Assembly: GCA_964425745.1 (NCBI GenBank)
Contig: CAYRNW010000004.1
Span: 67,833-131,832, forward strand
Direction: 5' to 3'
Source of the DNA: an uncultured Eubacteriales bacterium
GTDB taxonomy: Bacteria > Bacillota > JAAYKD01
DNA length: 64,000 nt
Both the position numbers and the translations under genes were made by a program. Position 1 is the stretch's first letter, and each line of letters begins with the position of its first letter. The notes below the pieces were generated by a model. It was given only the letters and a program-made list of their open reading frames with translations, was not told where the DNA came from and did not search any database. This document shows, piece by piece, positions 3,771 to 59,880 of this stretch.

Positions 3771-3775
3771 GTTTC

Positions 3776-5880: not shown

Positions 5881-5884
5881 GATG

Positions 5885-16991: not shown

Positions 16992-17010
16992 AGACTCCCT
17001 CCTCTCATGT

Positions 17011-20227: not shown

Positions 20228-20266
20228 TTCAGTCCTCCCCTTTCCCTTTGATTTTTTAGATCATCA

Positions 20267-21718: not shown

Positions 21719-21735
21719 AGGGAGCCCTCCTTTCT

Positions 21736-24461: not shown

Positions 24462-24484
24462 GGTGTGTTCCTCCTAACTCCTCT

Positions 24485-39357: not shown

Positions 39358-40083
39358 TTACCTCGAAACAATCTCTTCAATCTTCCCGTCTTTCAGCTTC
39401 ACCACGCGGTCGGCAATCTCTGCCACTTCTGGGTTGTGGGATGCCACAATGACCGTAACCCCTTGTTGGTTCAACTTGCGCATGAGGTCCAGTACCATGG
39501 TGTGGTTGGCACTATCGAGGTTTCCGGTAGGCTCATCTGCCAATAACAACGAGGGCTGATTCATCATAGCTCTGGCGATGGCCACACGCTGTTCTTGCCC
39601 CCCCGATAATTCTCCCGGGAAATGATGCATACGATCTGCCAAATCCACCTGGCGTAGTAACTCCTCTGCACGCTCCTGCACTTCTTTTGGAGGCTTGAGC
39701 TTAGTCACATATTTTGCCGGTTGCATTACATTCTCCAAAGCGGTTTTGTCTTCAAGTAAGTTATAGTCTTGAAAGATGAAGCCGATCTTTTCAGCCCGAA
39801 AAGCAGATAGCTTTTTGTCGTTCGTGCTCGACAAGTAGCCCAAGCTTTCGGTCCCTGCCAGCATTTCATCTTCAAAGCGGTAGCTCCCCTCCTCGGGTTG
39901 TAGAAGCGTCCCCAACAAGTAAAGGAAGGTTGACTTACCGCTACCAGAGGGCCCCCACAGAGTAATCCATTCGCCACGGCGAACTTCTAAATTTGCCTGA
40001 TCGAGTGCACGAATTTCTACCTCGCGCTTATGATAAATCTTACTCATATCTTTGACTGTCAGTAATGGACGATATCCTTCCAT
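39358..40083 (-). CDS. ABC transporter ATP-binding protein (MacB/LolD/FtsE type), copy 1
   Basis: Walker A 'GPSGSGKST', signature 'LSGGQQQR', Walker B 'LLLADEPT'. Confidence 0.9.
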   Translation of the reverse strand: MEGYRPLLTVKDMSKIYHKREVEIRALDQANLEVRRGEWITLWGPSGSGKSTFLYLLGTLLQPEEGSYRFEDEMLAGTESLGYLSSTNDKKLSAFRAEKIGFIFQDYNLLEDKTALENVMQPAKYVTKLKPPKEVQERAEELLRQVDLADRMHHFPGELSGGQEQRVAIARAMMNQPSLLLADEPTGNLDSANHTMVLDLMRKLNQQGVTVIVASHNPEVAEIADRVVKLKDGKIEEIVSR

Positions 40084-40102: not shown

Positions 40103-41269
40103 TTACCGTTTCAACTCGGCTATAGCTTGTTCAAGTATATTTAACATGACGACATTGTCTTCTTTATTGCCCAGGGTCAAACGGCAAATCCATTCGTTGA
40201 TCATGATTCCTTGTTCATCGAACAAGAAGAAACTATTCAACCTCACATCTCGATCATCTGCTTCTACCAACATGGGGTGAATAGTAGGACCTAGATTGAA
40301 TCTCCGCACCATTTCATAGGATTGATCTTCGTAAATCAGTAAATCTGGATACTTCTGTCGCAAACTCTCTGTTTCTTTCAAATATACATTTATTTGAATC
40401 TCATAGAAATTACGATAATACCACTCGATTTTTGTCTCCGCGTCCTCACGGTGCGCCAGTTCTTGTTGTATGATTGGGTACCTTGTATGCGCATCGGTAG
40501 TTGGTAGAACAACCACCACTTGTATCTGATCTTCTAAAGTATCGAGCAAAGTATATAATTGCAAGTTGGAGTTTCCAATTGTCCAAAGAATCAACAAGGT
40601 GGGTTTGGTTATTTTCAGTACTTCTTTTTCTTGTGTTTCCGACCGAACTAAGCAAAGCTCATGCAAAGGCTTACCGATTTGCACCGGTATTAGTGTTTCT
40701 TCTGCCGTGACTAAATAGGAATAAACATCTTCATACTGCCCAACTGCATAATAGAAATACTGCCTTTGAATCACCCCGTCTTCCAACAACCAAATCATAG
40801 GGTGAAAGTTTTTTATAATGTTCAGATAATCTTGCTTAAATCCCAGTTTCATTAAATCACTCAGCTGCATTTTGACCAGTGCGCAATTGGCAGGTAAATC
40901 CATCACCTCATAGAAAGGCAAACCGCGATTTACAGCCAATCCGGCAATCAATAGCGTAACGGGAGCAACCTCGGCAAGCTGCAATAATTCTTCCATAAAC
41001 AATTCTTCGTATAAGGTATCGCTGCCCGATGTCAAGATAACGAAGCCATCCTGTATTCCTGAAACGGGAAACATATCTCCTGGCTGCGTTTGAATGTATT
41101 CACGTTGTTTTGTTACTTCTTCTTCTGAAAAAGGTTTTAACACACTCCATAGCTTGGGAGCGTCTTGAGAAATAACAGGTTCTTTTTTTTGCGGTTGACA
41201 TCCGCTGAGTAAAACAAGGAGAAACACTAAAAACATAACGCTTATTTTCACCAAGAACGACCGTTTCAT
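40103..41269 (-). CDS. lipoprotein of an uncharacterised family ('family A'), copy 1
   Basis: Lipobox 'LLSGC'. Paralogs at 47731-48900 and 53765-54931, and a distant one at 51505-52578. Confidence 0.55.
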   Translation of the reverse strand: MKRSFLVKISVMFLVFLLVLLSGCQPQKKEPVISQDAPKLWSVLKPFSEEEVTKQREYIQTQPGDMFPVSGIQDGFVILTSGSDTLYEELFMEELLQLAEVAPVTLLIAGLAVNRGLPFYEVMDLPANCALVKMQLSDLMKLGFKQDYLNIIKNFHPMIWLLEDGVIQRQYFYYAVGQYEDVYSYLVTAEETLIPVQIGKPLHELCLVRSETQEKEVLKITKPTLLILWTIGNSNLQLYTLLDTLEDQIQVVVVLPTTDAHTRYPIIQQELAHREDAETKIEWYYRNFYEIQINVYLKETESLRQKYPDLLIYEDQSYEMVRRFNLGPTIHPMLVEADDRDVRLNSFFLFDEQGIMINEWICRLTLGNKEDNVVMLNILEQAIAELKR

Positions 41270-41288: not shown

Positions 41289-43859
41289 TTACAGCAATTC
41301 TCCAGGTTCTTTACGCGAGAACAAAACTGCCGGTAGCCAAGCCGTCAAGATTGCGCTCAGCAAACACAGCAAGAGAGGCCCGAATATTAGTAATGCGACA
41401 TTGGGCGTAAGCCTTAAGTTCTGACCCGATAGATACTGCTGTAAAAACGATATTCCCGTTGCCAATAGCCCAGCTGCAACAAAAGGATAACCGGTTCTTT
41501 TCATAAGTTGAATGACAATTTGTTGAGCGGTAGCACCGATGGTTCTTTGTATACCTGTGTATTTCGAAATTTCTCGCGTCTTGACAATGGTAAAAGCAAA
41601 CAGACCAAAACATGTTTGCAGAATCAGCAGAGCAATCAGGAACCACGAGGTATACATGTAGCTGCGCTGCATATCGAGAGTGCGCTGCAAATCATAAGAC
41701 GGTTCAATTACTTTAATATCCGGTGTTTCCCGCAGCTTCTCGCTGAGTTGTTGATATAATTCTTTTATTCTGGTATAGTCGCTGTTTCTTATGATGATTT
41801 GCGGCGCAACTTTGTTCTGCCAAAAGGTGTCTTTATTTTTTTCATCGGTTGTATAAATACTGAGCAACGGGAAGCTCAACCCTGGCCGCTCCATATAGTC
41901 ACCCAAATCAATGATTCCGACGATTTTTTTAGTTTCTTTCGGACCGTAGCTATAGAATTCTACCTCTTTTCCTACAGCATTTTCCACTGAAGTAAATAGG
42001 ACTTCTGCCAATTCTCTTCCCACCGCTATTTCTTCATATCGCTGCGGCCAACTGCCTAGGCTGACGTCTAACCCTTGGGTTTCGGTATACTTTCCGGCAG
42101 TAACGATAAGGTTAGTTGTATACTGTACTCCATTCACTAGAAAGGAGTATCTTGAATAGGAGCCTTGCCAAGCAATACTTTCTTCTTCCACTCCCATTTC
42201 AACTAGTTTGCCGATATAAGCGCTCGGTAGATGTGCTTCATTGACTTGATGTACACTTTGAATTTGTATCAAGTCAAATTGAGAGGTTATCAGCTTTGTC
42301 TCCAGACGGTCTGTTTCCATGATGGTGGACCAGGTACTTTGCTGTATGGCAAGAACGAGCAAGAAAAAGGTCAGTACACTGAGTTCCCGCCGAAAATCAA
42401 TTTTCCCCCATTGGAATCGTGATTTCCCTTTTAAGGCGTCGATAGGACTCTGCCCTAAGACAAAGAAGGAACAGATTACACTACTGAAAGGGGCAAAGCA
42501 CAAGGTGATGATTAGAAACGGAACGAGCGAACTGATTTGAAAGACATACCGGATGTCCAGAAAATGGTAGCAAATATTTAGCACCAACCACAACCCGGGT
42601 AGGGATATGGAAGCCGCTCCTAACGAAAGGTTCAAGTAGTTCTTAGCATACTCCAATTCGATTTGGTCGGTGCCCGAACCCATAGAACGGCGTATCGCAA
42701 TGGCTTTACGCTCTTGATATAAATGCAACATGAGCAAAGACGTGATCAGGAGCATGGAAATGCCCACCATTTTCATAAACAAATTAATAAGAGGAGCTAA
42801 TTCCGCATACTCCATACCGATTTTGAGCGGGGGGGTCAAATCGACCGGGATAGAATAGACCTCTGCCTGAAAGCGATCTTCGAAGGTATCGAGGACTTTT
42901 CGCAAGGTTAATGAAATGTTTTCTTTCTGATCGATTTTAATCAAGAGGTAGTTGGAAGGTTCCGGGTTAAAAAAAGAATTGGCTTCTTCTTCAAGCTTGC
43001 TGCCTTCCAGGTATAAACCGGAATCACTGGTGTTTCCTAGGTCAGCATTAAGTTCTTCCTGAGTTGCCGCCTTTCTCTCAAGAGGATAATGGAGTTCAGC
43101 CGTCATACGGCTCAAGAAAGCTGTATCATCCCCGTAATCAAGATATACCCTGCGGTCGGTATCACTCGGATAAATCTGAGAACCTGTCCATTGTAAGGAT
43201 GTTAAGATTTTCTGTGGGTAAAGATACTCCAGCGAAGTTAAAAAACTAGGTTTCCAATCGAAAAGATCAATTGGAGCTCCCTCGAAATAAAAACCTGCCG
43301 CATCATAGATGTTCTTCATGGGTAACCCGAATTCCCATTTGTGACTTTCGTTCGCATACGCTCCCAACACCGCCCAATTATGATCCAATTCGTCGGGTAA
43401 GCGATCTGCTTCCGGGGCCAATTGCATGATTCTGAAATAGCTTGGTTCCACAAACAATGTCTGAACAGCGTCATGGAAATAGGACATCGTACCAAGCAGC
43501 GTTTCTGTAGGGCGATTCTCTTCATAATGCGTAAAAATGACGCGATTTTTCGCGACCAAGGATACTTCTTCCACATGTTCAATTTCTTTGATCTGTTTAC
43601 TGTCTGCTGTTGTAAAGTACTCGGATGTAGAAAGTGCTGTATCGTAATCCCAGCCAATAGCATAGATTAAAGTCTGATCTTTTTTCTTTTCTTCATCGAG
43701 TTGAACTTCAATTCCACTGCTTAAGCTGGCTGCAGCCATGACGCAGATCTCGAATAAGAGTATGCTTGTAAACAGAATCACAGAAATCGTCCTAGTCATT
43801 GGTTCCATGGAACGAAAACGCTGGTACAAATTCCTTATGGTTTGGTTTAGTTTACTCAT
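41289..43859 (-). CDS. ABC transporter permease, tandem FtsX-like (MacB-like), copy 1
   Basis: About 857 aa. Start set at MSKLNQT (RBS GAGGTG). It has two 4-TM FtsX blocks, each preceded by a large extracytoplasmic domain. Confidence 0.8.
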   Translation of the reverse strand: MSKLNQTIRNLYQRFRSMEPMTRTISVILFTSILLFEICVMAAASLSSGIEVQLDEEKKKDQTLIYAIGWDYDTALSTSEYFTTADSKQIKEIEHVEEVSLVAKNRVIFTHYEENRPTETLLGTMSYFHDAVQTLFVEPSYFRIMQLAPEADRLPDELDHNWAVLGAYANESHKWEFGLPMKNIYDAAGFYFEGAPIDLFDWKPSFLTSLEYLYPQKILTSLQWTGSQIYPSDTDRRVYLDYGDDTAFLSRMTAELHYPLERKAATQEELNADLGNTSDSGLYLEGSKLEEEANSFFNPEPSNYLLIKIDQKENISLTLRKVLDTFEDRFQAEVYSIPVDLTPPLKIGMEYAELAPLINLFMKMVGISMLLITSLLMLHLYQERKAIAIRRSMGSGTDQIELEYAKNYLNLSLGAASISLPGLWLVLNICYHFLDIRYVFQISSLVPFLIITLCFAPFSSVICSFFVLGQSPIDALKGKSRFQWGKIDFRRELSVLTFFLLVLAIQQSTWSTIMETDRLETKLITSQFDLIQIQSVHQVNEAHLPSAYIGKLVEMGVEEESIAWQGSYSRYSFLVNGVQYTTNLIVTAGKYTETQGLDVSLGSWPQRYEEIAVGRELAEVLFTSVENAVGKEVEFYSYGPKETKKIVGIIDLGDYMERPGLSFPLLSIYTTDEKNKDTFWQNKVAPQIIIRNSDYTRIKELYQQLSEKLRETPDIKVIEPSYDLQRTLDMQRSYMYTSWFLIALLILQTCFGLFAFTIVKTREISKYTGIQRTIGATAQQIVIQLMKRTGYPFVAAGLLATGISFLQQYLSGQNLRLTPNVALLIFGPLLLCLLSAILTAWLPAVLFSRKEPGELL

Positions 43860-43901
43860 CTTACACCTCAATTTAAGACACATTAAAAACATTAATTGGA
43901 T

Positions 43902-44993
43902 TTATTGTTTGCCGAAATATTGCTCAACAAGCAAAAGTGGATCTTGGTAATCTCCTGTTTCTGAAAACGCACTATTTACCAGCATTAAGAAAAAGCGACT
44001 AACAATTTCGTTGTTTTCATTCACGATGATCATACTCGGGTATTGATATAGATTTAGCTTTACGCCTAACTCGTTATAGTCGTCGGTATATACTGCACAA
44101 CTCTCATTGAGTATATTCAGCAATCCTGTAACTCTCTCCTTTTGCATTAGCTGACCAGTCTTAATGCTTTCATATGATTCCTCAGATATTTCAAACTCGC
44201 CATAATAAGCATCCATCTCTTGAAAAGCTTCTAGCATATAAGCCCCATTATTATTAATCACAATAGTTGGTTTTATTGGCCATTCCTGCTTCAGTATCCA
44301 AGACGCAGCATCCATGCAAATTGAACATTCCGGTGAAAGTGTAATTAGGATTTTCTTTCCTTTTTCATTATAAGTAAGCGGTTCACCATTTTCTCTTTTA
44401 AGGTACAATTCCGGGAAAGAACCTCCTAGACCTGCTATTTTTACCGTTGAAAGATAATCACTCAATAAAAGGAAGTCTTTGATTTTTTTCCAATCCTGCA
44501 CACGGAAATTACTGTATTTGTTAACTACGGTTCTGTTTCTAACGCTGTAAAGGACAGGAAGACGACCTAAGGTATACTCTGCTATATCCGTTTCTTTTAA
44601 CAGAATTATTTCACTGCCTTTGGGCAGTGCTTGTGATAGCTGATCATCTCGAGTTTCACCTTCTTTGATGACTGCAATATAGGTAATCGGTTGTGCGTAG
44701 TCTATATTCACAAGATTTAAAACTAAATTGTTAACCAATCCCTCATATCCATCACAAATGAAAACCATATTGTATGTTGTTTCTATTGGGAAAAAATCAT
44801 CTATATCTAAACCAAGATACACTTTTGTAAAGTACATTTCACTGTCATTCTTACTCGTCATTAGCTTATATTCTATTTCGTCATCTTTTTCTCTATTCAT
44901 CAATTCGCTGTTATTGCTGCAGGAAGTTAGAACAAAAAGCAATACTATTGAAAACAGCAACAGGAATGTTTTATCGTTTCGGTGAACTAACAA
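43902..44993 (-). CDS. lipoprotein with C-terminal thioredoxin-like CxxC domain ('family B'), copy 1
   Basis: Lipobox 'LTSC'. 'LTLSPECSICMD...YPSMIIVNENNEIV' follows the thioredoxin beta1-CxxC-alpha1 and cis-Pro pattern. TTG start with RBS AGGAGAGGG. Confidence 0.5.
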   Translation of the reverse strand: MLVHRNDKTFLLLFSIVLLFVLTSCSNNSELMNREKDDEIEYKLMTSKNDSEMYFTKVYLGLDIDDFFPIETTYNMVFICDGYEGLVNNLVLNLVNIDYAQPITYIAVIKEGETRDDQLSQALPKGSEIILLKETDIAEYTLGRLPVLYSVRNRTVVNKYSNFRVQDWKKIKDFLLLSDYLSTVKIAGLGGSFPELYLKRENGEPLTYNEKGKKILITLSPECSICMDAASWILKQEWPIKPTIVINNNGAYMLEAFQEMDAYYGEFEISEESYESIKTGQLMQKERVTGLLNILNESCAVYTDDYNELGVKLNLYQYPSMIIVNENNEIVSRFFLMLVNSAFSETGDYQDPLLLVEQYFGKQ

Positions 44994-45061
44994 GCTACCC
45001 TCTCCTTATACGATATTGTTGTAGAAATCTGCAACTCATGCGGATATTAAGCTATATGGTG

Positions 45062-45355
45062 CTACTTAGTCACAACTAATGGCAAAGCTTTCAAATAGCC
45101 GCATGGCACGGGGTAATATGCACATCTTCTTGAAATCTCGACCTGATTGATGTAATATATTTCCAAATCGGGATTATATGGATCTGAAGCCCCGCACATA
45201 CCGCAAAAAACACAGTAGCATGTAGTTTCACCAGGTACTACTAATTGTGCTGCCATACAATCCATTCCACAAGGATTAGCATTTGCAAATGCAAGAGAAC
45301 TAAGCATAATACTGAAAACAATAGTAAACGAGAGCATCCTAGTCAATTTCGACAT
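45062..45355 (-). CDS. Sec-signal small secreted protein with 8 Cys (about 70 aa mature), paralog 1
   Basis: Start at MSKLTRM (RBS GGAAAGGGGA) and a signal peptide ending AFA/NA. Mature part 'C..C..C.C..CG.C...PY.PDL...Y.N.VE..R.C.Y.PVPCG..K' is shared with 55032-55310. Confidence 0.6.
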   Translation of the reverse strand: MSKLTRMLSFTIVFSIMLSSLAFANANPCGMDCMAAQLVVPGETTCYCVFCGMCGASDPYNPDLEIYYINQVEISRRCAYYPVPCGYLKALPLVVTK

Positions 45356-45823
45356 ATGAATTCCCCTTTCCATTTTTTATGTTACATGCATCCGCATGAG
45401 TTGCACAGGCATCATAACTTTATAAATACAAGATAATTGAAAGTTTCTTTATTATTAGTGTAAATTACGGACACTAAACACCACGTGCACGGGCAAATAA
45501 CGCCAGTCCATCGGAGTTTTAACACCAGTCAATCGTTAAAACATCACCAGTGAAACGGAAGTAAACACCAACATAATGGCTTGACAATAAAGAAACCTAG
45601 TGGCATCATAAAAGTGCGTTTACTCATATGCAGGATAAGGCAACGCTGAGGAGCGACCTGAGCGGTATATGAGGTTTTGCGGGAGAGTGATGCCATAAAA
45701 GGTGTCGCTCTTTTCTTTTGCGTTTAAGCGAAAGATAACAAGATTCATGAAATCACTCTCCTGGTAAAACTAAAGCGAAAAACCTTGGGGGTGCGGGGGC
45801 AAAGCCCCCGGTGATACTAAGAA

Positions 45824-46597
45824 CTAGATCTCATCCAAACTTTTTAATTCGTGACGTTCGCGCATGGATTTCTTGCCTTGAATCATAATCTCAACAGCAT
45901 TGTGAACAATACGATCCATAATGGCATCTGAGATAGGGCTGCTACTTTCAGAGTTAGCATTCATTCGCTCATACCAATCATTGGTATCGTACTGGGTGCA
46001 GAAAATTGTAGAGCCACCAGAGCAGCGAGTTTCAATGATTTCAAGTAGATTGTAGGACTCTTGTAGGGTGAGACTGCGAATAAGCCATTCATCCAAAATC
46101 AACAAGTCAACTTTTTTGTTACTCTTAATGACTTTCTTAAATTCTCCTGCGATTTGTGCCAAGCTTAGTTCTTCCAATAGTTCAGGTAAGCGGATATAAC
46201 GCACTGTTTTAAACTTTCTACATGCTGCATTACCCAATGCACAAGCCAGATATGTTTTACCATTTCCAGAAGCACCTTTGAGAATAATGTGGTGTCCTCC
46301 CTCCATGTATTTACAAGTGGAGAAGCGAATAATTTGTCCCTTATCTAAACGACGATCCTCGTGGTATTCAATCCCTTCAATGGTTGCACCTGGAATGGCG
46401 AAATGTGCGTTGCGAATGAAGCGCAACAATTTATTTCGTTGTCTTTGATTCCATTCCGAATCGACAAGTAGTGAAAGCCTTTCCTCAAAACCTAATTGGT
46501 TATAGGAGCGTGGATCCTGCATTTGTATTTCGAACTCAGAAGCCATGGCACTAAACCGAATTACTCGAAGTAACTCGACCGTAGATTGGTTGATCAT
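45824..46597 (-). CDS. istB: IS21-family transposition helper ATPase IstB
   Basis: 'ILKGASGNGKTYLACALG' Walker A. Start at MINQSTVELL, overlapping the istA 3' end. Confidence 0.8.
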   Translation of the reverse strand: MINQSTVELLRVIRFSAMASEFEIQMQDPRSYNQLGFEERLSLLVDSEWNQRQRNKLLRFIRNAHFAIPGATIEGIEYHEDRRLDKGQIIRFSTCKYMEGGHHIILKGASGNGKTYLACALGNAACRKFKTVRYIRLPELLEELSLAQIAGEFKKVIKSNKKVDLLILDEWLIRSLTLQESYNLLEIIETRCSGGSTIFCTQYDTNDWYERMNANSESSSPISDAIMDRIVHNAVEIMIQGKKSMRERHELKSLDEI

Positions 46598-46958
46598 TGT
46601 GGTTACCTCCTTTTCGGAAGTAATCAGCTCCATGGGTAATGCCCTGTTTGTTCGGAATTGTCTCTTGTGTAGTAACCTGAACTTTATCCTGTCCATTTTT
46701 CAAGATTGTCGTAAGGGTTCGAATGCTTGGTGTTTGTGTAAATGCCAAGAGACGTTCGCAAGCTTTCTCCAGTCGCTTCGCTCCATACCGTTCGGAGAGC
46801 TTAATCAAGCTGGCACATGCCTTGAAACCCTGCTCAACTTCTCTCCCCAAAGAAAGGAAATATTGCATAACCGCAGCTGTTTTTGGTCCTACTTCAAGAC
46901 TCCAAGCTGTAAAACTTTCACTGTTGTAGGTTAAAAATTTCTTGTGTTCAGGTGTCAT
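46551..46958 (-). pseudogene. istA: IS21 transposase IstA, C-terminal fragment only
   Basis: About 135 aa in the usual IS21 overlap arrangement with istB. The catalytic N-terminal two-thirds are missing. Confidence 0.55.
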
Positions 46959-46979: not shown

Positions 46980-47711
46980 CTACTTCATATTAACTTCCAC
47001 TTCTTCAATCTTGCCATCCTTGAGTTTAACAACCCGATCAGCAATTTCAGCGACCTCGGGGTTGTGTGAAGCTACGATCACCGTCATTCCTTCTCGATTG
47101 AGTTTCTGCATGAGATCGAGCACCATTTTGTGATTTGCACTGTCAAGATTGCCAGTGGGTTCATCAGCTAACAACAAAGAAGGCTGGTTCATCATTGCTC
47201 GGGCTATTGCTACCCGTTGCTCTTGTCCACCCGATAATTCTCCCGGAAAATGTTGCATACGATCACCTAAGTCTACCTGACGCAGCAACTCCATGGCGCG
47301 CTCTTGGACTTCTTTTTGGGGTTTGAGCTTAGTCACATATTTTGCCGGTTGCATTACATTCTCCAAAGCGGTTTTGTCTTCAAGTAAGTTATAGTCCTGG
47401 AAGATGAAGCCGATTTTTTCAGCCCGAAATGCAGATAGCTTTTTGTCATTCGTACTAGATAAGTAGCCCAAGCTTTCGGTTCCGGCCAGCATTTCATTTT
47501 CAAAACGATAGCTACCTTCCTCAGGTTGTAGCAACGTCCCCAACAAATAAAGGAAGGTTGACTTACCGCTACCAGAGGGTCCCCACAAAGTAATCCATTC
47601 GCCACGGCGAACTTCTAGATTTGCCTGATCGAGTGCACGAATTTCTACCTCGCGCTTATGATAAATCTTACTCATATCTTTGACTGTCAGTAATGGACGA
47701 TATCCTTCCAT
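46980..47711 (-). CDS. ABC transporter ATP-binding protein (MacB/LolD/FtsE type), copy 2
   Basis: Over 90% identical to copy 1 at protein level. The C-terminus diverges ('EEVEVNMK'). Confidence 0.9.
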
Positions 47712-47730: not shown

Positions 47731-48900
47731 TTACCGTTTCAACTCGGCTATAGCTTGTTCAAGTATATTTAACATGACGACATTGTCTTCTTTATTGCCC
47801 AGGGTCAAACGGCAAATCCATTCGTTAACCAAAATCCCTTTTTCATTGAATAAGAAAAAACTGTTTAATTCCGCAAATCGATCATCTACTTCTTTCAACA
47901 TAGGGTGAGTAAGATGAACTAAATTGAACCTTCGAACAATTTCATAAGATTGGTCCTCGAATATCATCAAATAAGGATACATTTGGGCTATACTTTCCAG
48001 TCGAGCCATATATTTATTCATCAGAAAATCATAGTTTTTTCTAGAAAACCATTCGATTTTTTCTTCAACATTTTCTCGTGTTGCCAGTTCGTGCAATAAT
48101 ACAGGGAATCGCGTTCGCACTTCAGTATTCTGTAAAACTAGTATGATTTGCACTTTCTCTATGAGAGGATCAATTAACGCACTCAGTTGCGGAAGTGAAT
48201 TCTCTAAAGACCAATGTATCATTAAAGTCGGTTCGGAGATCTTAATCGTTTCCTTTTCTTGAGAGCTCGATCGAACAAGAACAAGTTCTTGTAATGCTTT
48301 GCCGATTTCTACCGGAAACATAGAAACTTCATCTGTAGTAAAATGAGTGTAAACATCTTCATATTGCCCAACTGCATAATACAGATATTGCCTTTGAATC
48401 ATCCCGTCTTTTACTTGCCAAATCGTAGGATGATAGTAATAGATTAGATTCAAGTAATCTTGCTCGAAACCTAAACTCAATAAGTCACTCAACTTCAGTT
48501 TTACTACTTCAGAATTGCTGGGTAGAGTCATAACTTCATAGAAGGGTTCTGAGCGGAGCGGTGCCAGTCCGGCAATAAGCAACGTGACCGGAGCAAGATC
48601 AGCTAATTGTAAGAGGTCTTCCATGCAAAGTTCTTCATAGAGGGTATCACTTCCAGATGTTAGGATAACGAACCCGTCTTCTATACCAGGAATTGGAAAC
48701 TCATCTCCCGGTTTCGTATTGATATACTTGCGTTGTTTAAGTTTTTCTTCCTCTGAAAGGGGTTTCAGCACACTCCATAGTTTAGGTGCATCTTGATCTA
48801 CAACTGGCTCTATTTCTTTTTGAGGTTGACATCCACTAAGTAAGATGACTAGAAACACCAAGAATAAAACACCCATCTTGATAAAAAAGGAGCGATTCAT
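47731..48900 (-). CDS. family-A lipoprotein, copy 2
   Basis: Start at MNRSFF (RBS AAGGAAGGTGG). The last about 30 aa are identical to copy 1. Confidence 0.55.
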   Translation of the reverse strand: MNRSFFIKMGVLFLVFLVILLSGCQPQKEIEPVVDQDAPKLWSVLKPLSEEEKLKQRKYINTKPGDEFPIPGIEDGFVILTSGSDTLYEELCMEDLLQLADLAPVTLLIAGLAPLRSEPFYEVMTLPSNSEVVKLKLSDLLSLGFEQDYLNLIYYYHPTIWQVKDGMIQRQYLYYAVGQYEDVYTHFTTDEVSMFPVEIGKALQELVLVRSSSQEKETIKISEPTLMIHWSLENSLPQLSALIDPLIEKVQIILVLQNTEVRTRFPVLLHELATRENVEEKIEWFSRKNYDFLMNKYMARLESIAQMYPYLMIFEDQSYEIVRRFNLVHLTHPMLKEVDDRFAELNSFFLFNEKGILVNEWICRLTLGNKEDNVVMLNILEQAIAELKR

Positions 48901-48919: not shown

Positions 48920-51487
48920 TTACAGCAAATCTCCGGGTTCTTTTCGCGAGAATGCCACTGCCGGTAACCAAGATGCAAAAATTGCACTCCCTATACATAA
49001 CAGGAAGGGTCCGAAAATCAGGATTACCGCTTCGCTTGTATACCACAAAGTCTGACCTGAGGTTGTTTGTTGCAGTAGTGAAAGTCCAGTTGCCAATACT
49101 CCTGCTACTACAAAAGGAAAACCAGTACGCTTCATCAGTTGACGAATGATTTGTTTGGCAGTCGCACCCATGGTTCTTTGGATTCCGGTGTATTTGGAAA
49201 TCTCGCGTGTTTTTACTATGGTGAAAGCAAATAACCCGAAACAGGTTTGTAAAACTAGCATACCAATGAGAAACCATGAAGTCAGCATGACACTGTGCTG
49301 CATGTCCAGAGTACGCTGTAAATCAAACGAAGGTTCAATGACTTTTATATCGGGTGTCTCGCGGTATTTTTCACTGAGTTGCTCATGCAATTCCTGGATC
49401 CTACCGTAGTCACTATTCCTAATAATGAGTAGCGGTGCCACTTTGTTTTGCCAAAACGTGTCTTTGTTCTTTTCATCCGTGGCATAGATACTGAGTAATG
49501 GATAACCTAATTCGGGCCGCTCCATGTACTCACCCAGTGTGACAATTCCTACAATTCGTTTACTCTCTCTCGTCCCGTAGCTGGGGAATTGCATCACTTT
49601 CCCTAAAGCCTCTTCTGCTGAGCCAAACAATGTCTCTGCTAGTTCTTCCCCTACTGCAATTTCCTCGTATTCTTGTGGCCAATAACCCTGACTCACCAAC
49701 AATCCTTGAGATTCTTGGTAATGACCGGCGGTGACCACCAAGTTGGTGGTAAATTGCATACCATCTACATAAAAACTAAATCTCGGATACGTTCCCTGCC
49801 AGCCTATACTCTCTTCTTCTACCCCTAGCCCGGTGAGTTTATATATGATTTCGCTGGGTAAATGATCTTCGTTTACCTTATGAATACTTTGAATTTGTAT
49901 CATATCAAACTGAGAGGTTCGTAGTTTTGCTTCCAGTTTAGCTGTTTCCATAATGGTAGACCAGGTGCTTTGTTGTATGACGACAATCAATAAAAAGAAA
50001 GTCACAACACTAAGCTCGCGCCGGAAATCAATTTTACCCCATTGGAATCGTGATTTCCCTTTTATGGCATCAATCGGACTCTGACCCAAAACAAAGAACG
50101 AACAAATTACACTACTGAACGGGGCGAAGCTCAAGGTGATGATTAGAAACGGAACGAGCGAACTGATTTGAAAGACATACCGGATGCCCAGAAAATGGTA
50201 GCACATATTTAGCACCAACCACAACCCGGGTATGGATATGCAAGCCGCTCCTAACGAAAGGTTCAAATAGTTCTTAGCATACTCCAACTCGATTTGGTCG
50301 GTGCCCGAACCCATGGAACGGCGAATAGCTATGGCCTTTCTTTCCTGATACAAATGCAACATAAGTAAAGAAGTAATGAGAAGCATGGAAATACCGACCA
50401 TGGACATAAACAACTGAATGAGAGGTTGCAATTCTTCGTTATCCATACCAATTTTAAGAGGTGGTATGAGTTCCACAGGGATTGAATAAACCTCACCTTG
50501 AAAGCGATCTTCAAAGGTATCGAGGATCTTTCGCAGAGTTAATGAGATGTTCTCTTTTGAATCAATCTTAACCAGCAAGTAGTTATACGGTTCTGGGTTA
50601 AAAAATTCTCTGGCAAGGGTTTCTTCTTTGCTTCCTTCTATATAATAACCAACATGCTCATTGGAATTTCGTTTCACCCAAAATTCCTCCATAGTAACCA
50701 GCATCCTTGGTAAAGCAAAATGCAACCCAGCGTTGCTTCGGGCTATAAAATTTTGATCACTCGCATAGTCAAAGTAAACAAGCTCATCCCCAGGAAGCGG
50801 TTTCACCGGATTAGAGATCCATTTTAAGGAGGACATGACGATTTGAGGATATTCTTTTTCGACTGATACCGGTGAATCTGGTTTGAAATTCAAAAACTCC
50901 ACATATGTCCCTGCAAAATCAAATCCTTTAGTGTCATAAATATTGTTCAGGGTTGATCCAATCTCCCATTGGTGAAGTTGAGATACAGCTGCACCTAAAA
51001 CAGCCCAATTTTGGTCGAGTTCATCTGGTAAACGATCCGTCTCAGATGCCATCTGCATAATTCTGAAATAGCTGGGTTCAACAAATATCGAAGGAACAGA
51101 TTTCCTGAAAACCATAGAACCTGAAGAGGTTTCAATTCTCTTGTCTGGCTCATAGTGCATCAAATATTCGCGATTGTTGGCTACTAATGAAACTTCTTCC
51201 ACATGATCAATTTCGAGAACCAACTTTTTATCATCTGAGGAAAAAAACTCTACGGGTGTTACCTTGGAATTATAATTCCATCCAATGGCATACACTAAGG
51301 TCTGGTCTTCCTTTTTTTCGTTTTCTAATTGAACCTCAACCCCATTACTTAAGCTTGCGGCTGCCATGACACAAATCTCGAACAAGAGTATGCTTACAAG
51401 CAAAATCATCGTGATAACTTTACTAATTGGCTCTTTTATCTTGAAACGATAAACCATTTGCTTAATCCTGGTTAGTTTCATCGGCAT
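48920..51487 (-). CDS. ABC transporter permease, tandem FtsX-like, copy 2
   Basis: 855 aa. The central TM block is nearly identical to copy 1. Confidence 0.8.
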   Translation of the reverse strand: MPMKLTRIKQMVYRFKIKEPISKVITMILLVSILLFEICVMAAASLSNGVEVQLENEKKEDQTLVYAIGWNYNSKVTPVEFFSSDDKKLVLEIDHVEEVSLVANNREYLMHYEPDKRIETSSGSMVFRKSVPSIFVEPSYFRIMQMASETDRLPDELDQNWAVLGAAVSQLHQWEIGSTLNNIYDTKGFDFAGTYVEFLNFKPDSPVSVEKEYPQIVMSSLKWISNPVKPLPGDELVYFDYASDQNFIARSNAGLHFALPRMLVTMEEFWVKRNSNEHVGYYIEGSKEETLAREFFNPEPYNYLLVKIDSKENISLTLRKILDTFEDRFQGEVYSIPVELIPPLKIGMDNEELQPLIQLFMSMVGISMLLITSLLMLHLYQERKAIAIRRSMGSGTDQIELEYAKNYLNLSLGAACISIPGLWLVLNMCYHFLGIRYVFQISSLVPFLIITLSFAPFSSVICSFFVLGQSPIDAIKGKSRFQWGKIDFRRELSVVTFFLLIVVIQQSTWSTIMETAKLEAKLRTSQFDMIQIQSIHKVNEDHLPSEIIYKLTGLGVEEESIGWQGTYPRFSFYVDGMQFTTNLVVTAGHYQESQGLLVSQGYWPQEYEEIAVGEELAETLFGSAEEALGKVMQFPSYGTRESKRIVGIVTLGEYMERPELGYPLLSIYATDEKNKDTFWQNKVAPLLIIRNSDYGRIQELHEQLSEKYRETPDIKVIEPSFDLQRTLDMQHSVMLTSWFLIGMLVLQTCFGLFAFTIVKTREISKYTGIQRTMGATAKQIIRQLMKRTGFPFVVAGVLATGLSLLQQTTSGQTLWYTSEAVILIFGPFLLCIGSAIFASWLPAVAFSRKEPGDLL

Positions 51488-51504: not shown

Positions 51505-52578
51505 TTAAGGTTGCCTTGTCTTCAGAACCTCGATAATCTGATGATACACATAGGTTGATTCATCTTCTATAGGAACTAACTTATTTTCGCAAGTCCATTG
51601 AGCTATCAATAGCCCGTTTGTATCTAGTAGATAGATAATACATTTGCTTGTCGCCTTATCCTTAGAAAAGCGATTTGTGATTTCGAGGTTCATATCCTCG
51701 TACCATGTGATGTTGTGCCATCTTTTTTTTAATGTTGTTAGAGCAGTTGGGTATTCTTCTACTAGTTTCTCCCAATCCTGATACATTCTTTCTCGTGATT
51801 CTGTTAATTCTATGTCAGGTCTCTGTTCAACTAGCTCTTTCAATAACGGGAAATAGCGATATGGGAAAAACGAGTTTACAACAGGCACGACACGATAAGG
51901 CTGCACAGATAATTCATCGATTAAGCGGTAGATTGGTTCTTCATTACCCCATATTTCAAATTCAATCAATAATGTAGGTTGATCTATTGTTAGAATGACT
52001 TTTTCATGGTCAATAGGCATACTAAGCGGTAATTCTTCAACAGAGTAAGGGTTGTTTATTAGTAACTTGAAATACTCAAAATCAATACCCGGTTGAAGGT
52101 TCAACCATTGATCAACGATGATGCCCTTAGATATTCTCCATAATTTTGGGTAATAAGATTCGCCAACCCGCTTATTCTTATATACCTTTTCGAGTTCGTT
52201 ACTCTCAATTTTTCGTAATGTTATATTAGATTGTTCAAGCAAATATTCATACAAATTGTGTGCTTCATCATCATTAGGAAGGTTTTCATAGAGAATAGTT
52301 AGTGACTTATCTGAAAAGGCGTTCGAAAATTCCTTCACCATTATGTTACTTGTTCCAAATTGAAAGGAATATGTTAACAAGATGAACTCATTATCGATTT
52401 CTTTTATGGGAAAACCATCTCCCACCTTGGTACTAACGTGAGCTAGATTCGACAATTCTTCAGTTGTTAACGGCGATAAAACCATGCGTTTGATTCCAGA
52501 TAGCTCATTTTGTTTTGTTTCAACCACTTCCTGAGACGAACAACCAATGATCAACACAAATATGCCTATATATAGCAA
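51505..52578 (-). CDS. lipoprotein, distant member of family A (start codon uncertain)
   Basis: 'IIGC' lipobox. Shares 'GDGFPIKEIDNEFILLT' and C-terminal blocks with family A. An upstream in-frame AGGAGGTG RBS suggests an earlier non-ATG start. Confidence 0.4.
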   Translation of the reverse strand: MLYIGIFVLIIGCSSQEVVETKQNELSGIKRMVLSPLTTEELSNLAHVSTKVGDGFPIKEIDNEFILLTYSFQFGTSNIMVKEFSNAFSDKSLTILYENLPNDDEAHNLYEYLLEQSNITLRKIESNELEKVYKNKRVGESYYPKLWRISKGIIVDQWLNLQPGIDFEYFKLLINNPYSVEELPLSMPIDHEKVILTIDQPTLLIEFEIWGNEEPIYRLIDELSVQPYRVVPVVNSFFPYRYFPLLKELVEQRPDIELTESRERMYQDWEKLVEEYPTALTTLKKRWHNITWYEDMNLEITNRFSKDKATSKCIIYLLDTNGLLIAQWTCENKLVPIEDESTYVYHQIIEVLKTRQP

Positions 52579-52645
52579 AAGTAGTTTAATGAATTTTGAC
52601 CTTTTCGTAATCTCACCTCCTGAAGACTTGTTATAATCCGTCTTG

Positions 52646-53749
52646 TTATTTAGCTAAATCTAACGGATTTTCATATCCTTCAAATAGATTCTTGCCTTCA
52701 GGATTTACCAAAGTAATCACCCTAGCATGTTTTAAACAGCCATTCTCATCTGTGATTACCATGAAAGGATAACCAATTTCAACGAAATTCTTTTTCAAAT
52801 CACCAAGGCTGTCCTTTAAAACAGTAAAGTCATCACCTAACAATTCAATATAAGCTTTAACCTTTTCGCGCATTCCCAAATCCCATTGTTGCATTTGTGT
52901 TAGGAGTTCCTCATCTACTATAACTTGAGGGAAAGAATCCTTGAAATTTTCAATTGAGTCTGAATAGTATGAACTATCATCAATAATAATCGTCGGCTTT
53001 ACTTTCCAATCAGATTGTTTTATCCATGGTATTATATCAGAACATATTGAGCACGTCGGTGATAAAAACAAATAGCATTGTTTACCATTTGTATTAAGCT
53101 CGATTTCATGGTCTGTTTCATCAAAAAGGCTCAAAATCGGAAATTTCTCTCCCTCAATAAATGATGATTTTGTAATGCCTATGTGTTTTTTTGAGCTCAT
53201 GATTTCGTTAATCTCTGGCCAATCTTGAAATCTGATATTCGCTTTCTTATATTCTACAATTCCATCTTTAATATAGTAAATTGCAGGAAAAGAACCAATT
53301 GACCATTTATTCAACATATTATCGTCATAATAAATTATTTCTGTATCTTCCGAAAGACCATTTATTATCTGATCTAACATTGAAGAATTTTCTTCCGTCC
53401 TTGCAGGGAGCAAAGAAGTAATGTCTTTGATTTCATTCTGGTAGCATAACTGTACTATCATTGTGGTAATCAAATCCAAAGTTCCATTCAAAACCAAAAT
53501 ATAGCCTTCATTAGATTTTTCCGGATAGAGTTCCTGGGTTTTTATTTTACCATTTAGCTCTTCTAGCAGACCATCAGTAAATTTTTTACTTGTAGCAACT
53601 AAAAACTCCTTATTATCATAGCCACTTTTAACTTTAAGATCGTTAACTCTAAAATGACAGGCGCTTAGTAAAAAGCAAATCAATATCAAAATAAAAAAGG
53701 TTTTCGGTTTTTCACTTCTTCTTCTGTTTGCTCGCAACACATCAATCAC
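52646..53749 (-). CDS. family-B thioredoxin-like CxxC lipoprotein, copy 2
   Basis: 'LSAC' lipobox and a 'LFLSPTCSICSD' CxxC motif. Confidence 0.5.
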   Translation of the reverse strand: MIDVLRANRRRSEKPKTFFILILICFLLSACHFRVNDLKVKSGYDNKEFLVATSKKFTDGLLEELNGKIKTQELYPEKSNEGYILVLNGTLDLITTMIVQLCYQNEIKDITSLLPARTEENSSMLDQIINGLSEDTEIIYYDDNMLNKWSIGSFPAIYYIKDGIVEYKKANIRFQDWPEINEIMSSKKHIGITKSSFIEGEKFPILSLFDETDHEIELNTNGKQCYLFLSPTCSICSDIIPWIKQSDWKVKPTIIIDDSSYYSDSIENFKDSFPQVIVDEELLTQMQQWDLGMREKVKAYIELLGDDFTVLKDSLGDLKKNFVEIGYPFMVITDENGCLKHARVITLVNPEGKNLFEGYENPLDLAK

Positions 53750-53764
53750 CTCTAATTGCCCAAC

Positions 53765-54931
53765 TTATTTCAACTCAGTTATTGCTTGCTCCAAAATAGT
53801 CAGCATTTCATATCTGTCTTCTTGATTCCCCAAAGTCATGCGGCACTGCCAGTCTTTAACCAAGATACTTTTTGCATTGAACAGGTAGAACGAATAAAGC
53901 ATAACTCCACGGTCCTCTCCTTTCATCAACGAGTAATGCAGAATCTGTAAAGAATTCAGCCTACGTATCATTTCGTGATTTTGATCTTCATATATCTTCA
54001 ACTCGGGATATAGTTTCATTATATTGTTGATGTTACTTAGTTCAACTGATGTTTGGTTTTTCATACTTTCAATATATTTCCATTCAATTCTATCTTCAGC
54101 ATCATAAGACGATGCTAAAGCTTCTAAAAGCACAGGATAACGAGTGCGAATATCTGTTGTCTTAAGCACCAGAAATATCTGCACCTTGTTCTGAAAATAG
54201 TCTAAGAAGGTTTGTAGCAATGCATTTGAATTCTCAAATGACCAAAGAATAAGCAGAGTTGGCCGGTCTATTTGAACCAGTTCTCTCTCTTGACCTCGTG
54301 CCTGAACCAAATATAATTTTTGCAAGGGTTGTCCAACTTGAATCGGCGAAATCATGGAATCATCGTTTGTGAAGTGCTCATATATATCTGCATATTGACC
54401 GACTACATAATAAAGATATTGATTTTGGATAATACCCTTCTCTATTTGCCAAACTGCTGGATGATAGTATTTTTCAATTTCAATATAATCTTCATCAAAA
54501 CCCAAACTAATCAAACCATTTCTATCAATCTTAACAATCTCAACATTTGTTGGGAGTTGAATCTTATCAAAGAATGAATTAGAAGCAGGAGATACTAATC
54601 CGGCAATTAAGATAGTTATTGGGGCTAAATCAGATAGTTGCAAAAGTTCACGCATACATAACTCTTCATAGAGATTTGGTCCCCCTGTAGTAAGTATTAT
54701 ATACCCATCTGTTAAGCCCTTAATTGGAAACTCGCTGTTTACTACTGTGTCAATGTATTGATGCTGTTTTACTCTTTCTTCTTGCGATAAAGGTTTTAAG
54801 ACACTCCATAATTTCGGTTCCTCAATGTTCTCCTTAGGTGTCACATTTTTCATTGATTGACACCCACTGAGTAATACTATTAAGAACACTATTAGTGTGA
54901 CGAAAGCATTGTTATAGATGGAGTGCTTCAT
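53765..54931 (-). CDS. family-A lipoprotein, copy 3
   Basis: 'LLSGCQS' lipobox. C-terminus 'RMTLGNQEDRYEMLTILEQAITELK' parallels copies 1 and 2. Confidence 0.55.
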   Translation of the reverse strand: MKHSIYNNAFVTLIVFLIVLLSGCQSMKNVTPKENIEEPKLWSVLKPLSQEERVKQHQYIDTVVNSEFPIKGLTDGYIILTTGGPNLYEELCMRELLQLSDLAPITILIAGLVSPASNSFFDKIQLPTNVEIVKIDRNGLISLGFDEDYIEIEKYYHPAVWQIEKGIIQNQYLYYVVGQYADIYEHFTNDDSMISPIQVGQPLQKLYLVQARGQERELVQIDRPTLLILWSFENSNALLQTFLDYFQNKVQIFLVLKTTDIRTRYPVLLEALASSYDAEDRIEWKYIESMKNQTSVELSNINNIMKLYPELKIYEDQNHEMIRRLNSLQILHYSLMKGEDRGVMLYSFYLFNAKSILVKDWQCRMTLGNQEDRYEMLTILEQAITELK

Positions 54932-55031
54932 TTCATTATCATCTCCAATTCTCGAGAATAAGTAATTCGCTTTATGTATATAATGACTAATTTACGCACG
55001 TTAGGTTTGTATAGCCATGCTGGAGATTATA

Positions 55032-55310
55032 CTACCTACTCGGCAATTCCATACCTTTTATCCAACCACAAGGTACTGGTCTATATGTGCAGTATCTGTT
55101 TACCTCAACATAGTTTTGATAAACTACAGCTAGATCAGGAGTGTAAGGTTCATATGAGCACCACCCGCAAAGTGTACATACACAATAGGTGTTATCGGCA
55201 TTACAATCTACTACATCAGCAATGGCGCACATTGGATTGGCAAGAGCAAAAGACGAAAATAGTGTGGACAACAATCCAAACAACATTATTATAATCAAAT
55301 ATTTTTTCAT
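55032..55310 (-). CDS. Sec-signal small secreted 8-Cys protein, paralog 2
   Basis: Start at MKKYLII (RBS AAAGGAGA). Signal peptide ends ALA/NP. Cys pattern is conserved with paralog 1. Confidence 0.6.
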   Translation of the reverse strand: MKKYLIIIMLFGLLSTLFSSFALANPMCAIADVVDCNADNTYCVCTLCGWCSYEPYTPDLAVVYQNYVEVNRYCTYRPVPCGWIKGMELPSR

Positions 55311-55490
55311 TTTCTTTTCTCCTTTTATTAAATCCAGCATGGCTATCTATCAATGCTGGTGAAATACCTAAAGTTAACTCCAGCATATCAAGCGAAAAAC
55401 TTATTCACCAGGTTTTCCTCACATAAACCCAACATACTTTAGTGAGTAAGGATACTATGCTATTATACGAACTCTATATTTAACCGTTAT

Positions 55491-56714: not shown

Positions 56715-56912
56715 TTACTTCTTCATCTTACCCGCTATGAGCGAGGCCACATATACCACTCCGGCTAAGACAATAAGTGGAATCATGACATAAGCAGAGG
56801 TTACCTTAAAAAACACATTAACAATGAGAATGACCAAAAGGATGACAAGCACCAGTCCTGTTAGTTTTTCCTGCAAGGGCGAGAAACGGTAAGGATGTCT
56901 GGGTTCTGGCAT
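56715..56912 (-). CDS. small 2-TM membrane protein (65 aa)
   Basis: ORF between permease 3 and the trx-ccdA promoter. Supported only by hydrophobicity and position. Confidence 0.3.
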   Translation of the reverse strand: MPEPRHPYRFSPLQEKLTGLVLVILLVILIVNVFFKVTSAYVMIPLIVLAGVVYVASLIAGKMKK

Positions 56913-59601: not shown

Positions 59602-59880
59602 TCTCCACACTCCTCATTCATGAAGTCTTCTAGAATCGTCGATATTTTCTATGCGATTTCCATTTTGTTTCATGTGCCTCTTTTTGATTATTTTTATCTC
59701 ATTGCATAATTCTGCATAATTTTCAAAACTCCTTCAAATGATTCTTCTTTTTTCATAATTTTATTTCGCACCGGGGTCAGACCCCGGTGCGAAATAAGGT
59801 GGGGTTTTGTGAGTTGGTTACTGAACTCAAAATGTTTATGGTGTATTCTTCATAACGATCAATACGAGGAGGACGATACC

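Follow-up and report, generated by a model that had tools for sequence, protein, structure and literature searches.

Eight-cysteine exported small proteins encoded beside putative thiol-redox and MacB-type transporter genes in an uncultured Bacillota lineage

We analyzed a 64,000-nucleotide (nt) window of DNA from an uncultured Eubacteriales bacterium (contig CAYRNW010000004.1, positions 67,833 to 131,832 of the forward strand) and focused on two short genes within it, small1 and small2. We are nearly certain that their products form a real family of exported proteins. These proteins are probably clients of the thiol-redox proteins encoded next to them, and we put forward, tentatively and by analogy with known operons, that they are bacteriocin-like effectors with dedicated redox maturation and with immunity from an ATP-binding cassette (ABC) system and lipoproteins.

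A family of exported small proteins with eight cysteines

small1, 45062..45355, minus strand: 97-residue precursor with a predicted 24-residue Sec signal peptide (AFA/N) and a 73-residue mature protein with 8 Cys; heads operon A
small2, 55032..55310, minus strand: 92-residue precursor with a predicted 24-residue signal peptide (ALA/N) and a 68-residue mature protein with 8 Cys; lies second in operon B, behind the Trx-6TM gene

Both open reading frames (ORFs) lie on the minus strand exactly where an initial annotation of the window had placed them, and its account of good ribosome-binding sites (RBSs) agrees with ours. The small1 gene starts at ATG 45355 and stops at 45062-45064, with GGAAAGGGGA and then 6 nt upstream of the ATG; small2 starts at ATG 55310, with AAGGAG and 8 nt upstream. 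An alternative in-frame ATG for small1 at 45373 is unlikely to be the start because it overlaps the GGAAAGGGGA RBS and has no RBS of its own. The two precursors are 39% identical (BLASTP E 9e-19), and all eight Cys align between them and in a third allele, P0002, as expected for the invariant scaffold that had been proposed. Signal peptides were assessed by hand-made hydropathy and motif inspection, not by SignalP. By this check both precursors have an n-region of charge +2 and a 12-residue hydrophobic core (Kyte-Doolittle mean 2.3-2.6), and cleavage is predicted at AFA/N in small1 and at ALA/N in small2, in line with the hydrophobic signal peptides and Ala-x-Ala sites annotated initially; neither precursor has a lipobox. 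Sequence similarity and signal-peptide anatomy thus both uphold a family of Sec-type small exported proteins.

Each mature protein contains 8 Cys and 7 Tyr, no His, and either 7 (small1) or 6 (small2) Pro. The cysteine motif first described is right in both copies from CxCxxCGxC through PVPCGxxK and wrong at two places: the first pair, given as C-x(3,4)-C, is C-x3-C in small1 and C-x7-C in small2, and the spacer before PY, given as three residues, is four in small1 and three in small2. Six-frame translation of the whole window revealed no further copies of the motif in a plausible ORF, only the small1 and small2 loci. Sortase anchoring through the C-terminal LPLVVTK tail was ruled out on reading the sequence, which has no LPXTG, hydrophobic stretch or charged tail. 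In metagenomic variants of small1, the otherwise invariant Gly of PVPCG (codon 45102-45104) is replaced by Arg (P0004) or Ser (P0007); the two substitutions differ, apparently at the same nucleotide, and may be real polymorphism or sequencing error.

Relatives of the small proteins are few. A word-index search across 5.8 billion proteins brought up nothing beyond the two query clusters and P0002, and an exhaustive search of 1.84 billion cluster representatives with a profile of the three mature sequences returned P0002 (3e-38) and small2 (2.6e-27); three extra matches (P0011-P0013) were discarded as translated tandem-repeat artifacts. P0002, the third allele, shares 66% identity with small1 and is known from short ENA and Logan metagenome contigs, and the exact small2 protein is present on 23 public contigs. 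No relatives were detected among GTDB genomes, JGI metagenome contigs, viral contigs or plasmids. Pfam (E <= 10), NCBIfam (E <= 1) and PADLOC yielded no assignment for either protein, and PDB profile searches gave weak noise only. The initial placement of the proteins outside known characterized families therefore stands after Pfam, NCBIfam, PDB profile and exhaustive profile searches; the expected conservation of the Cys pattern is seen in the one further homolog, P0002, which keeps all 8 Cys, and there were no wider homologs. The family looks confined to one species-level population known only from metagenomes, and this very narrow distribution limits its significance.

The three alleles share all 8 Cys and 27 invariant mature positions. 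When small1 is compared with P0002, synonymous divergence (dS) is saturated at ~2.5, and nonsynonymous divergence (dN) amounts to 0.24 for the mature part and 0.49 for the signal peptide. Saturated dS together with a conserved mature part therefore indicates purifying selection on a real coding sequence, and the dN/dS pattern is that expected of an exported protein.

Neighboring lipoproteins and a membrane protein with thioredoxin-like domains

Everything from ~39.3 to 59.6 kb of the window lies on the minus strand. Operon A runs in the order small1, LpA1 (363 residues), FtsX_A (867), LpA2 (388) and ABC_A, and operon B in the order Trx-6TM (350), small2, LpB1, LpB2, LpB3, FtsX_B (855), LpB4 and ABC_B.

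LpA1, 43902..44993, minus strand: type I lipoprotein (LpI) with lipobox LTSC, CSIC and a predicted TlpA/ResA-like C-terminal fold; orphan by sequence
FtsX_A, 41289..43892, minus strand: duplicated MacB/FtsX-type permease, 867 residues (Pfam FtsX E 6.6e-13; hydropathy), 69% identical to FtsX_B
LpA2, 40103..41269, minus strand: type II lipoprotein (LpII), remote LpI paralog without CxxC
ABC_A, 39358..40083, minus strand: ABC ATPase (Pfam ABC_tran E 7.5e-32), 95% identical to ABC_B
Trx-6TM, 55491..56543, minus strand: signal/anchor helix, CSSC thioredoxin-like domain and six transmembrane (TM) helices
LpB1, 53765..54931, minus strand: type II lipoprotein
LpB2, 52646..53749, minus strand: type I lipoprotein with CSIC, 25% identical to LpA1
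LpB3, 51505..52578, minus strand: divergent type II lipoprotein
FtsX_B, 48920..51487, minus strand: duplicated MacB/FtsX-type permease, 855 residues (precomputed Pfam FtsX in public loci; hydropathy)
LpB4, 47731..48900, minus strand: type II lipoprotein, likely start MNRSFF at 48900
ABC_B, 46980..47711, minus strand: ABC ATPase of operon B
IS21-type remnant, 45824..46958, minus strand, between operons B and A: IstB-like ORF (IstB_IS21 Pfam annotation in locus L006) and a 135-residue ORF, possibly an istA fragment; same arrangement in L006

All six mid-sized proteins of the operons have a lipobox; that of LpB4 was read from the MNRSFF start, a scan of the longer ORF having found none. They are of two types. 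LpI comprises LpA1 and LpB2, in which an LSPxCSICxD motif is invariant, and LpII comprises LpA2, LpB1, LpB3 and LpB4, which have no CxxC. The types show remote homology to each other (hhalign probability 94%, E 9e-8, 317 columns) and, given this homology and the absence of CxxC, LpII appears to be a redox-dead paralog of LpI. A PDB profile search for the LpII fold returned nothing, and LpII is linked to LpI by hhalign only. In LpII, a single extracytoplasmic Cys is invariant; it belongs to a W-x-C motif close to the C terminus. With no match in Pfam or NCBIfam, the six lipoproteins are, on sequence comparison, a new two-type superfamily.

Structure prediction identifies LpI as a TlpA-like thiol-disulfide oxidoreductase by fold. 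The AlphaFold2 model of LpA1 has a predicted local distance difference test score (pLDDT) of 55 overall; scored in 10-residue blocks, residues 190-360 are mostly at ~75-85 and drop to 55-67 in places. The model gives this region a beta-hairpin followed by beta-alpha(CxxC)-beta-alpha-beta-alpha-beta-beta-alpha, as in TlpA-type thioredoxin folds, with the invariant CSIC at 223-226 directly before helix 226-235. Foldseek matched the model to 95 PDB entries at E <= 0.001. The best 50 of the 95 (E 6e-6 to 2e-4, target TM-scores 0.41-0.73) are mostly TlpA-like, plus peroxiredoxin-type thioredoxin folds (AhpE, thiol peroxidase), and are led by the Geobacter thioredoxin-like protein 3kcm, SdbA, CcmG, DsbE, TlpA, ResA, StoA, Etrx2 and FetE. 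A PDB profile search with LpI gave a weak in-register match to the thioredoxin-like 2m72 (E 0.034), and neither LpA1 nor LpB2 matched Pfam Redoxin, AhpC-TSA or Thioredoxin at E <= 10. Both LpA1 and LpB2 are predicted to combine the features of TlpA/ResA-like proteins: a thioredoxin fold with CxxC at the start of helix 1, an extracytoplasmic location and a membrane anchor. The LpI gene directly follows small1 and the third allele, and lies two genes after small2. The link to thiol-redox genes drawn in the initial annotation is thus borne out, and its strongest element is this CxxC lipoprotein, which that annotation had passed over along with the MacB-type ABC operon context and the inverted repeats described below.

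The other redox candidate, Trx-6TM, has an N-terminal signal/anchor helix, an extracytoplasmic thioredoxin-like domain with CSSC and then six hydrophobic helices. Matches to the thioredoxin-like domain (residues 26-115) are sub-threshold, at E 0.0026 in Pfam and E ~0.01 to PDB thioredoxins. A hydropathy scan places Cys148 (NPC) in TM1 and Cys257 and Cys265 in or next to TM4, which is the CcdA/DsbD layout of a six-helix core with Cys in TM1 and TM4. The DsbD-family models PF02683 and PF13386 gave no match to the membrane domain, even at E <= 10. The CcdA label first attached to this gene therefore fits the topology and finds no sequence model to back it, and we regard Trx-6TM as plausibly CcdA-like, by topology only. 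The gene is directly upstream of small2 in all eight metagenomic loci listed, and both genes are missing from locus L095, as the suggested co-occurrence of the small gene with a Trx-CcdA gene would predict. Judged by these searches, the small proteins, both lipoprotein types and Trx-6TM fall outside known sequence families.

Duplicated permeases and divergence between the operons

A third permease gene, FtsX_C, lies upstream of operon B together with a 65-residue ORF. FtsX_A, FtsX_B and FtsX_C (~860-890 residues) all show the features of MacB/FtsX-type permeases: they are duplicated 8-TM proteins with two large extracytoplasmic domains that lack Cys, their Pfam FtsX matches reach 49-64 bits against a cutoff of 25.5, FtsX_C has a MacB_PCD domain, and partner ATPases are present. 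FtsX_C has no ATPase gene of its own nearby. The 65-residue ORF (56715-56912, minus strand), between the FtsX_C and Trx-6TM genes, is conserved and encodes a two-helix membrane protein, and a single-domain rhodanese gene (59809-60201, plus strand) is divergently transcribed from FtsX_C.

Identity between operons A and B falls from 94-95% in the ABC ATPase to 79% in the permease remainder (residues 311-867), 66% in LpII (LpA2 versus LpB4), 50% in permease extracytoplasmic domain 1 (ECD1, the first ~310 residues), 39% in the small protein and 25% in LpI. Divergence is greatest in the extracytoplasmic parts: dN reaches 0.43 in LpI, 0.25 in ECD1 and, with the small1-P0002 value given above, 0.24 in the mature small protein, against 0.14 in the permease remainder and 0.037 in the ATPase. 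Diversifying selection was sought and, because dS is saturated in nearly all paralog pairs, only purifying selection can be stated; the nonsaturated pairs are ABC_A versus ABC_B (dS 1.06) and FtsX_B versus the C-terminal part of the third-allele permease (dS 0.16). The ATPases, ~95% identical at dS ~1.06 where all other operon A/B gene pairs are saturated (dS >1.8), show a pattern that suggests gene conversion or more recent exchange of the ATPase only.

Inverted repeats bracket the small genes

Inverted repeat around small1: 3' arm 45030..45045 and 5' arm 45390..45405, minus strand, 16 nt, 100% complementary
Inner inverted repeat around small2: 3' arm 55011..55031 and 5' arm 55326..55346, minus strand, 21 nt, 86%
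Outer inverted repeat around small2: 54951-54975 and 55387-55411, 25 nt, 80%
Inverted repeat around the third allele: 328-354 and 663-689 of locus L003, 27 nt, 74%

These repeats sit just outside each small coding sequence. The arm sequences of small1 and small2 are wholly different, with pairing preserved, and the third-allele arm differs from that of small1 by a change that preserves a G-U pair. The closing stems are kept in both minimum-free-energy and centroid RNA folds. When the 120-nt flanks were shuffled in 2000 trials, the match observed for small1 was reached in none; the corresponding counts were 0/2000 (longest perfect run) and 2/2000 (20-nt window) for small2, and 78/2000 and 57/2000 by the same two measures for the third allele. 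The repeats likely act as a clamp between the 5' and 3' untranslated regions (UTRs), through which the small cistron would be processed or stabilized apart from the long operon. They could instead be the arms of a DNA inversion switch (inverton), but the inverted orientation was present on none of the contigs examined. Should the protein turn out not to be a toxin, these structurally conserved brackets around the small ORFs would still need explaining.

Consensus scans for promoters and terminators found sites no more often than in shuffled sequence; the one noteworthy result is a sigma70-like promoter match (TTGAAA-16-TATAAT, 56647-56620) upstream of the Trx-6TM gene. Rfam contained no known RNA element matching near the operons.

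The locus varies between near-identical strains

Comparison of window positions 39358-59610 with loci L009, L095, L096, L094 and L001-L005 showed that the locus is plastic between near-identical strains. At L009, operon B is fused directly to the tail of operon A, without the IS21 remnant, small1, LpA1 or FtsX_A. On the P0002 contigs, the third allele and its own LpI (48% identical to LpA1) follow a permease. The third-allele permease is a mosaic, with its first ~300 residues allele-specific and the rest 98% identical to FtsX_B.

L095, a 21-kb stretch of a 135-kb contig, comes from a close relative (FtsX_C 96% identical; ABC ATPase 97.5% identical to ABC_A). It carries FtsX_C and the 65-residue ORF and then directly a permease, LpII and an ATPase; the 21 kb examined contain no Trx-6TM, small or LpI gene, and the LpB1-B3 region is also missing. 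Because of this locus, the transporter core can be said to exist without the small protein. The single L095 locus suggests that the redox genes are gained and lost together with the small gene, LpI alone being missing at L096, and the L095 arrangement fits an immunity-only strain.

Host and genomic setting

Genes for DnaB, tRNAs and a Lon-like protease, together with a T-box leader, mark the window as chromosomal. The DnaB sequence shares 89% identity with that of the metagenome-assembled genome "Bacillota bacterium CTOTU7615" and ~52% with the next matches, such as that of Acetivibrio mesophilus, and these identities place the host in an uncultured, poorly sampled Bacillota lineage. GC content is 0.34-0.42 in the locus region and 0.43-0.48 in the rest of the window; the stretch over small2 and LpB1-LpB3 (52000-56000) has 0.34-0.35, against 0.43-0.48 in the housekeeping part.

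Two AAA_14/DUF4143 ATPase genes flank the locus (37074-38375, minus strand; 60395-61582, plus strand) and match the PADLOC candidate defense model PDC-S01 at E 3e-169 and 6e-161. Beyond ~62.7 kb lies an AbiEii/DUF6088 toxin-antitoxin pair, in a setting like that of a defense island. Elsewhere in the window, and unrelated to the small genes, are a T-box leader upstream of a pyridoxal phosphate-dependent enzyme gene, two tRNA genes and a long minus-strand cluster encoding CotH, DUF2194, epimerase and EAL-domain proteins (T-box, tRNA and cluster features at 5617-5881, minus strand; 3696-3848, plus strand; and 15276-28776, minus strand).

A proposed mechanism and its alternatives

In the mechanism that we propose, signal peptidase I would cut after AFA or ALA and free the mature protein outside the membrane. 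Its eight Cys would be oxidized or isomerized to four disulfides, with the operon's membrane-anchored LpI as the presumed catalyst, and LpI might in turn be recycled by the thioredoxin-like domain of Trx-6TM, encoded upstream of small2, if the relay runs in that direction. The folded protein may then act extracellularly as an antagonistic, bacteriocin-like effector. The duplicated MacB/FtsX permease, the ABC ATPase and LpII would protect the producer, comparable to LanI with LanFEG or to a lactococcin 972 cluster, and pairing of the 5' and 3' UTRs through the inverted repeat could allow the small cistron to be processed or stabilized separately from the membrane-protein operon. We counted the variable, low-GC locus flanked by candidate defense genes and AbiEii in favor of a bacteriocin-like effector, and likewise the high divergence of the extracytoplasmic parts. 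A wider claim, which we consider doubtful, is that small1, small2 and the third allele represent a new class of antibacterial mini-proteins, anionic, Sec-exported and with four disulfides, which a self-contained module would produce. In such a module, LpI would be the folding catalyst, Trx-6TM a Trx-fused CcdA-like conduit and LpII with the MacB-type pump the immunity system, while the UTR clamp would set toxin-to-immunity expression; that every extracytoplasmic component would be a family unknown to Pfam is a similarly doubtful part of it.

Several observations weigh against a bacteriocin-like effector with dedicated redox maturation. The mature proteins carry a net charge of -2 (small1) or -3 (small2), and most bacteriocins are cationic and amphipathic; the defensin-like resemblance suggested initially is weakened likewise, as typical defensins and bacteriocins are cationic. 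AlphaFold2, run on the mature small protein with a three-sequence alignment, reached a pLDDT of 51, which is unusable for a fold search or for disulfide geometry. The host is probably anaerobic, as judged from distant relatives only, and anaerobes seldom have extracellular disulfides. When TlpA-like proteins are paired with CcdA, they usually act as reductases, which would fit free thiols for a metal or cofactor. On the one short contig of L096, LpB2 is missing between LpB1 and LpB3, so that operon B may be able to do without LpI. Co-loss was seen at one 21-kb locus, and the small gene could sit elsewhere in the L095 genome. ECD1 type is not strictly tied to small-protein type, as L095 has a third-allele ECD1 and no small gene. 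Finally, the match of FtsX_B to TIGR01654, "bacteriocin-associated integral membrane protein", which we also listed in favor of the model, is weak (E 2.5e-4, 19.7 bits) and far below the cutoff of 189; FtsX_B also has a sub-threshold match to ADOP (TIGR03434).

The same operons could be read as an envelope-maintenance or detoxification module in which the small protein is a nontoxic extracytoplasmic adaptor or regulatory subunit that docks on the permease ECD or the lipoproteins. FtsEX, which works through extracellular partners, is a precedent for this; the small gene is always at the head of an operon with a MacB-type permease, and ECD1, LpI and the small protein diverge fastest, as would fit co-evolving contacts. 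We nevertheless think an adaptor unlikely, since L095 retains permease, LpII and ATPase without a small gene in 21 kb, its permease is of the third-allele ECD1 type with no small partner, and the small protein has no enzyme or recognizable binding domain. If the Trx-6TM to LpI relay instead kept the Cys reduced, as in CcdA-ResA or TlpA-ScoI, the small protein would be a thiol-rich carrier that binds metal ions or sulfur species outside the cell, with the ABC system handling the ligand. The best 50 of 95 structural matches to LpI include TlpA, ResA, CcmG and StoA, all of them reductases supplied by CcdA/DsbD; the small protein is anionic with a dense CxCxxCxxC cluster, and a rhodanese gene lies divergently upstream of FtsX_C. 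Yet the protein lacks His, clusters assembled before export are ruled out by the Sec route, and the Cys spacing corresponds to no known metal-site family in Pfam, NCBIfam and PDB searches. Disulfide scaffolds typically show such an even, invariant number of Cys surrounded by conserved Pro, Tyr and Gly, and the rhodanese is a separate, divergently transcribed gene, all of which makes a thiol carrier distinctly unlikely.

Three divergent alleles in one species-level population, beside variable surface-exposed neighbors, would suit a secreted pheromone-like signaling protein whose alleles are recognition types sensed at the cell surface. This is improbable in our view: in the window and loci examined, the surroundings of the operons yielded neither a histidine kinase nor a response regulator nor an RRNPP-type receptor, and ~70 residues with 8 Cys would be atypical for a Gram-positive pheromone. 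Highly improbable is a free-standing carbohydrate-binding module (CBM) related to CBM73/CBM5, with the chitin-binding "ski-boot" fold. In the match of the family profile to the CjCBM73 structure 6z41 (E 0.06), two Cys fall on the CBM73-specific disulfide (366-372) and aromatic residues on W371, Y378 and W386, and the small protein is Tyr-rich (7 of about 70), but small2 alone gives no CBM match and there is no Pfam CBM match. Against an alignment of seven CBM73-like sequences from Vibrio, Photobacterium and Francisella replicons, hhalign probability was only 3.6% over 24 columns, and membership was rejected for that reason.

If the proposal of a redox-matured, bacteriocin-like effector is true, the locus provides a compact and wholly new part set for making and resisting a disulfide-knotted exported protein in a probably anaerobic lineage. 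The new parts would be a mini-protein scaffold, a lipoprotein superfamily with active and redox-dead thioredoxin folds, and a Trx-fused membrane electron conduit. They would add to the bacteriocin-like effectors known so far and to the known forms of extracytoplasmic oxidative folding in monoderm bacteria, and the mini-protein could serve in engineering as a small, stable scaffold. Toxin or not, a client gene that shares an operon with a presumed oxidoreductase and a MacB-type pump needs explaining.

Comparison with known systems

Judged by analogy, the operon logic resembles that of known systems that join a bacteriocin to immunity and redox-accessory proteins. Like laterosporulin and the actifensins, the small proteins are Cys-dense, ribosomally made bacterial proteins of small size. 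Laterosporulin and actifensins have 6 Cys, are cationic and are leaderless or have other leaders, whereas the proteins described here have 8 Cys, are anionic and predicted to be Sec-exported, and show no similarity to the sequence of any solved structure.

For immunity, lantibiotic LanI/LanFEG and lactococcin 972 clusters combine an ABC system with a lipoprotein or a large membrane protein. The lactococcin 972 clusters share with our operons the order of a small signal-peptide gene first, then a large FtsX-like membrane protein and an ABC ATPase; here, unlike there, the permease is a duplicated 8-TM MacB-type protein, TlpA-like and redox-dead lipoproteins are present, and the small protein has eight Cys. 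A lactococcin 972-type context is thus visible in the signal-peptide anatomy and the ATPase, with the TIGR01654 match weak at 19.7 bits against 189. The small proteins did not match the lactococcin 972 family, whose accessions we take to be PF09683 and TIGR01653, in Pfam (E <= 10) or NCBIfam (E <= 1), assuming that these libraries hold the model. Lcn972 itself has no cysteines (PMC8538875).

Pediocin and bactofencin operons encode thioredoxin-family accessory proteins (PedC for pediocin PA-1 and DLSL_0053 for bactofencin) that have been linked to correct disulfides (PMC5465099). Those operons and ours alike place the gene of a dedicated thioredoxin-fold protein next to genes for a Cys-containing exported peptide and an ABC transporter. 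Sublancin BdbA and BdbB are further thioredoxin-family accessory proteins of a bacteriocin. The pediocin and bactofencin peptides have double-glycine leaders, peptidase-domain ABC exporters and 1-2 disulfides, in contrast to the predicted Sec export, 8 Cys, Trx-fold lipoprotein of a new family and MacB-type ABC of our operons.

SdbA, an oxidase of TlpA fold, has a Trx-like lipoprotein and CcdA2 as its partners and shows that such a relay can run oxidatively (PMC7034828). We rejected SdbA as a direct precedent for bacteriocin folding because its effect on bacteriocin production is indirect, via CiaRH (PMC5112981). An anchored TlpA-fold CxxC protein together with a multi-helix protein bearing intramembrane Cys is common to CcdA-ResA/StoA, S. 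gordonii SdbA-SdbB-CcdA2, S. pneumoniae Etrx-CcdA and, as predicted, the present operons. Compared with those monoderm redox relays, the proteins here have no Pfam or NCBIfam match at threshold, LpI has a CSIC site and an extra N-terminal domain, the membrane partner has a Trx-like domain of its own at the N terminus, and the presumed client is encoded in the same operon.

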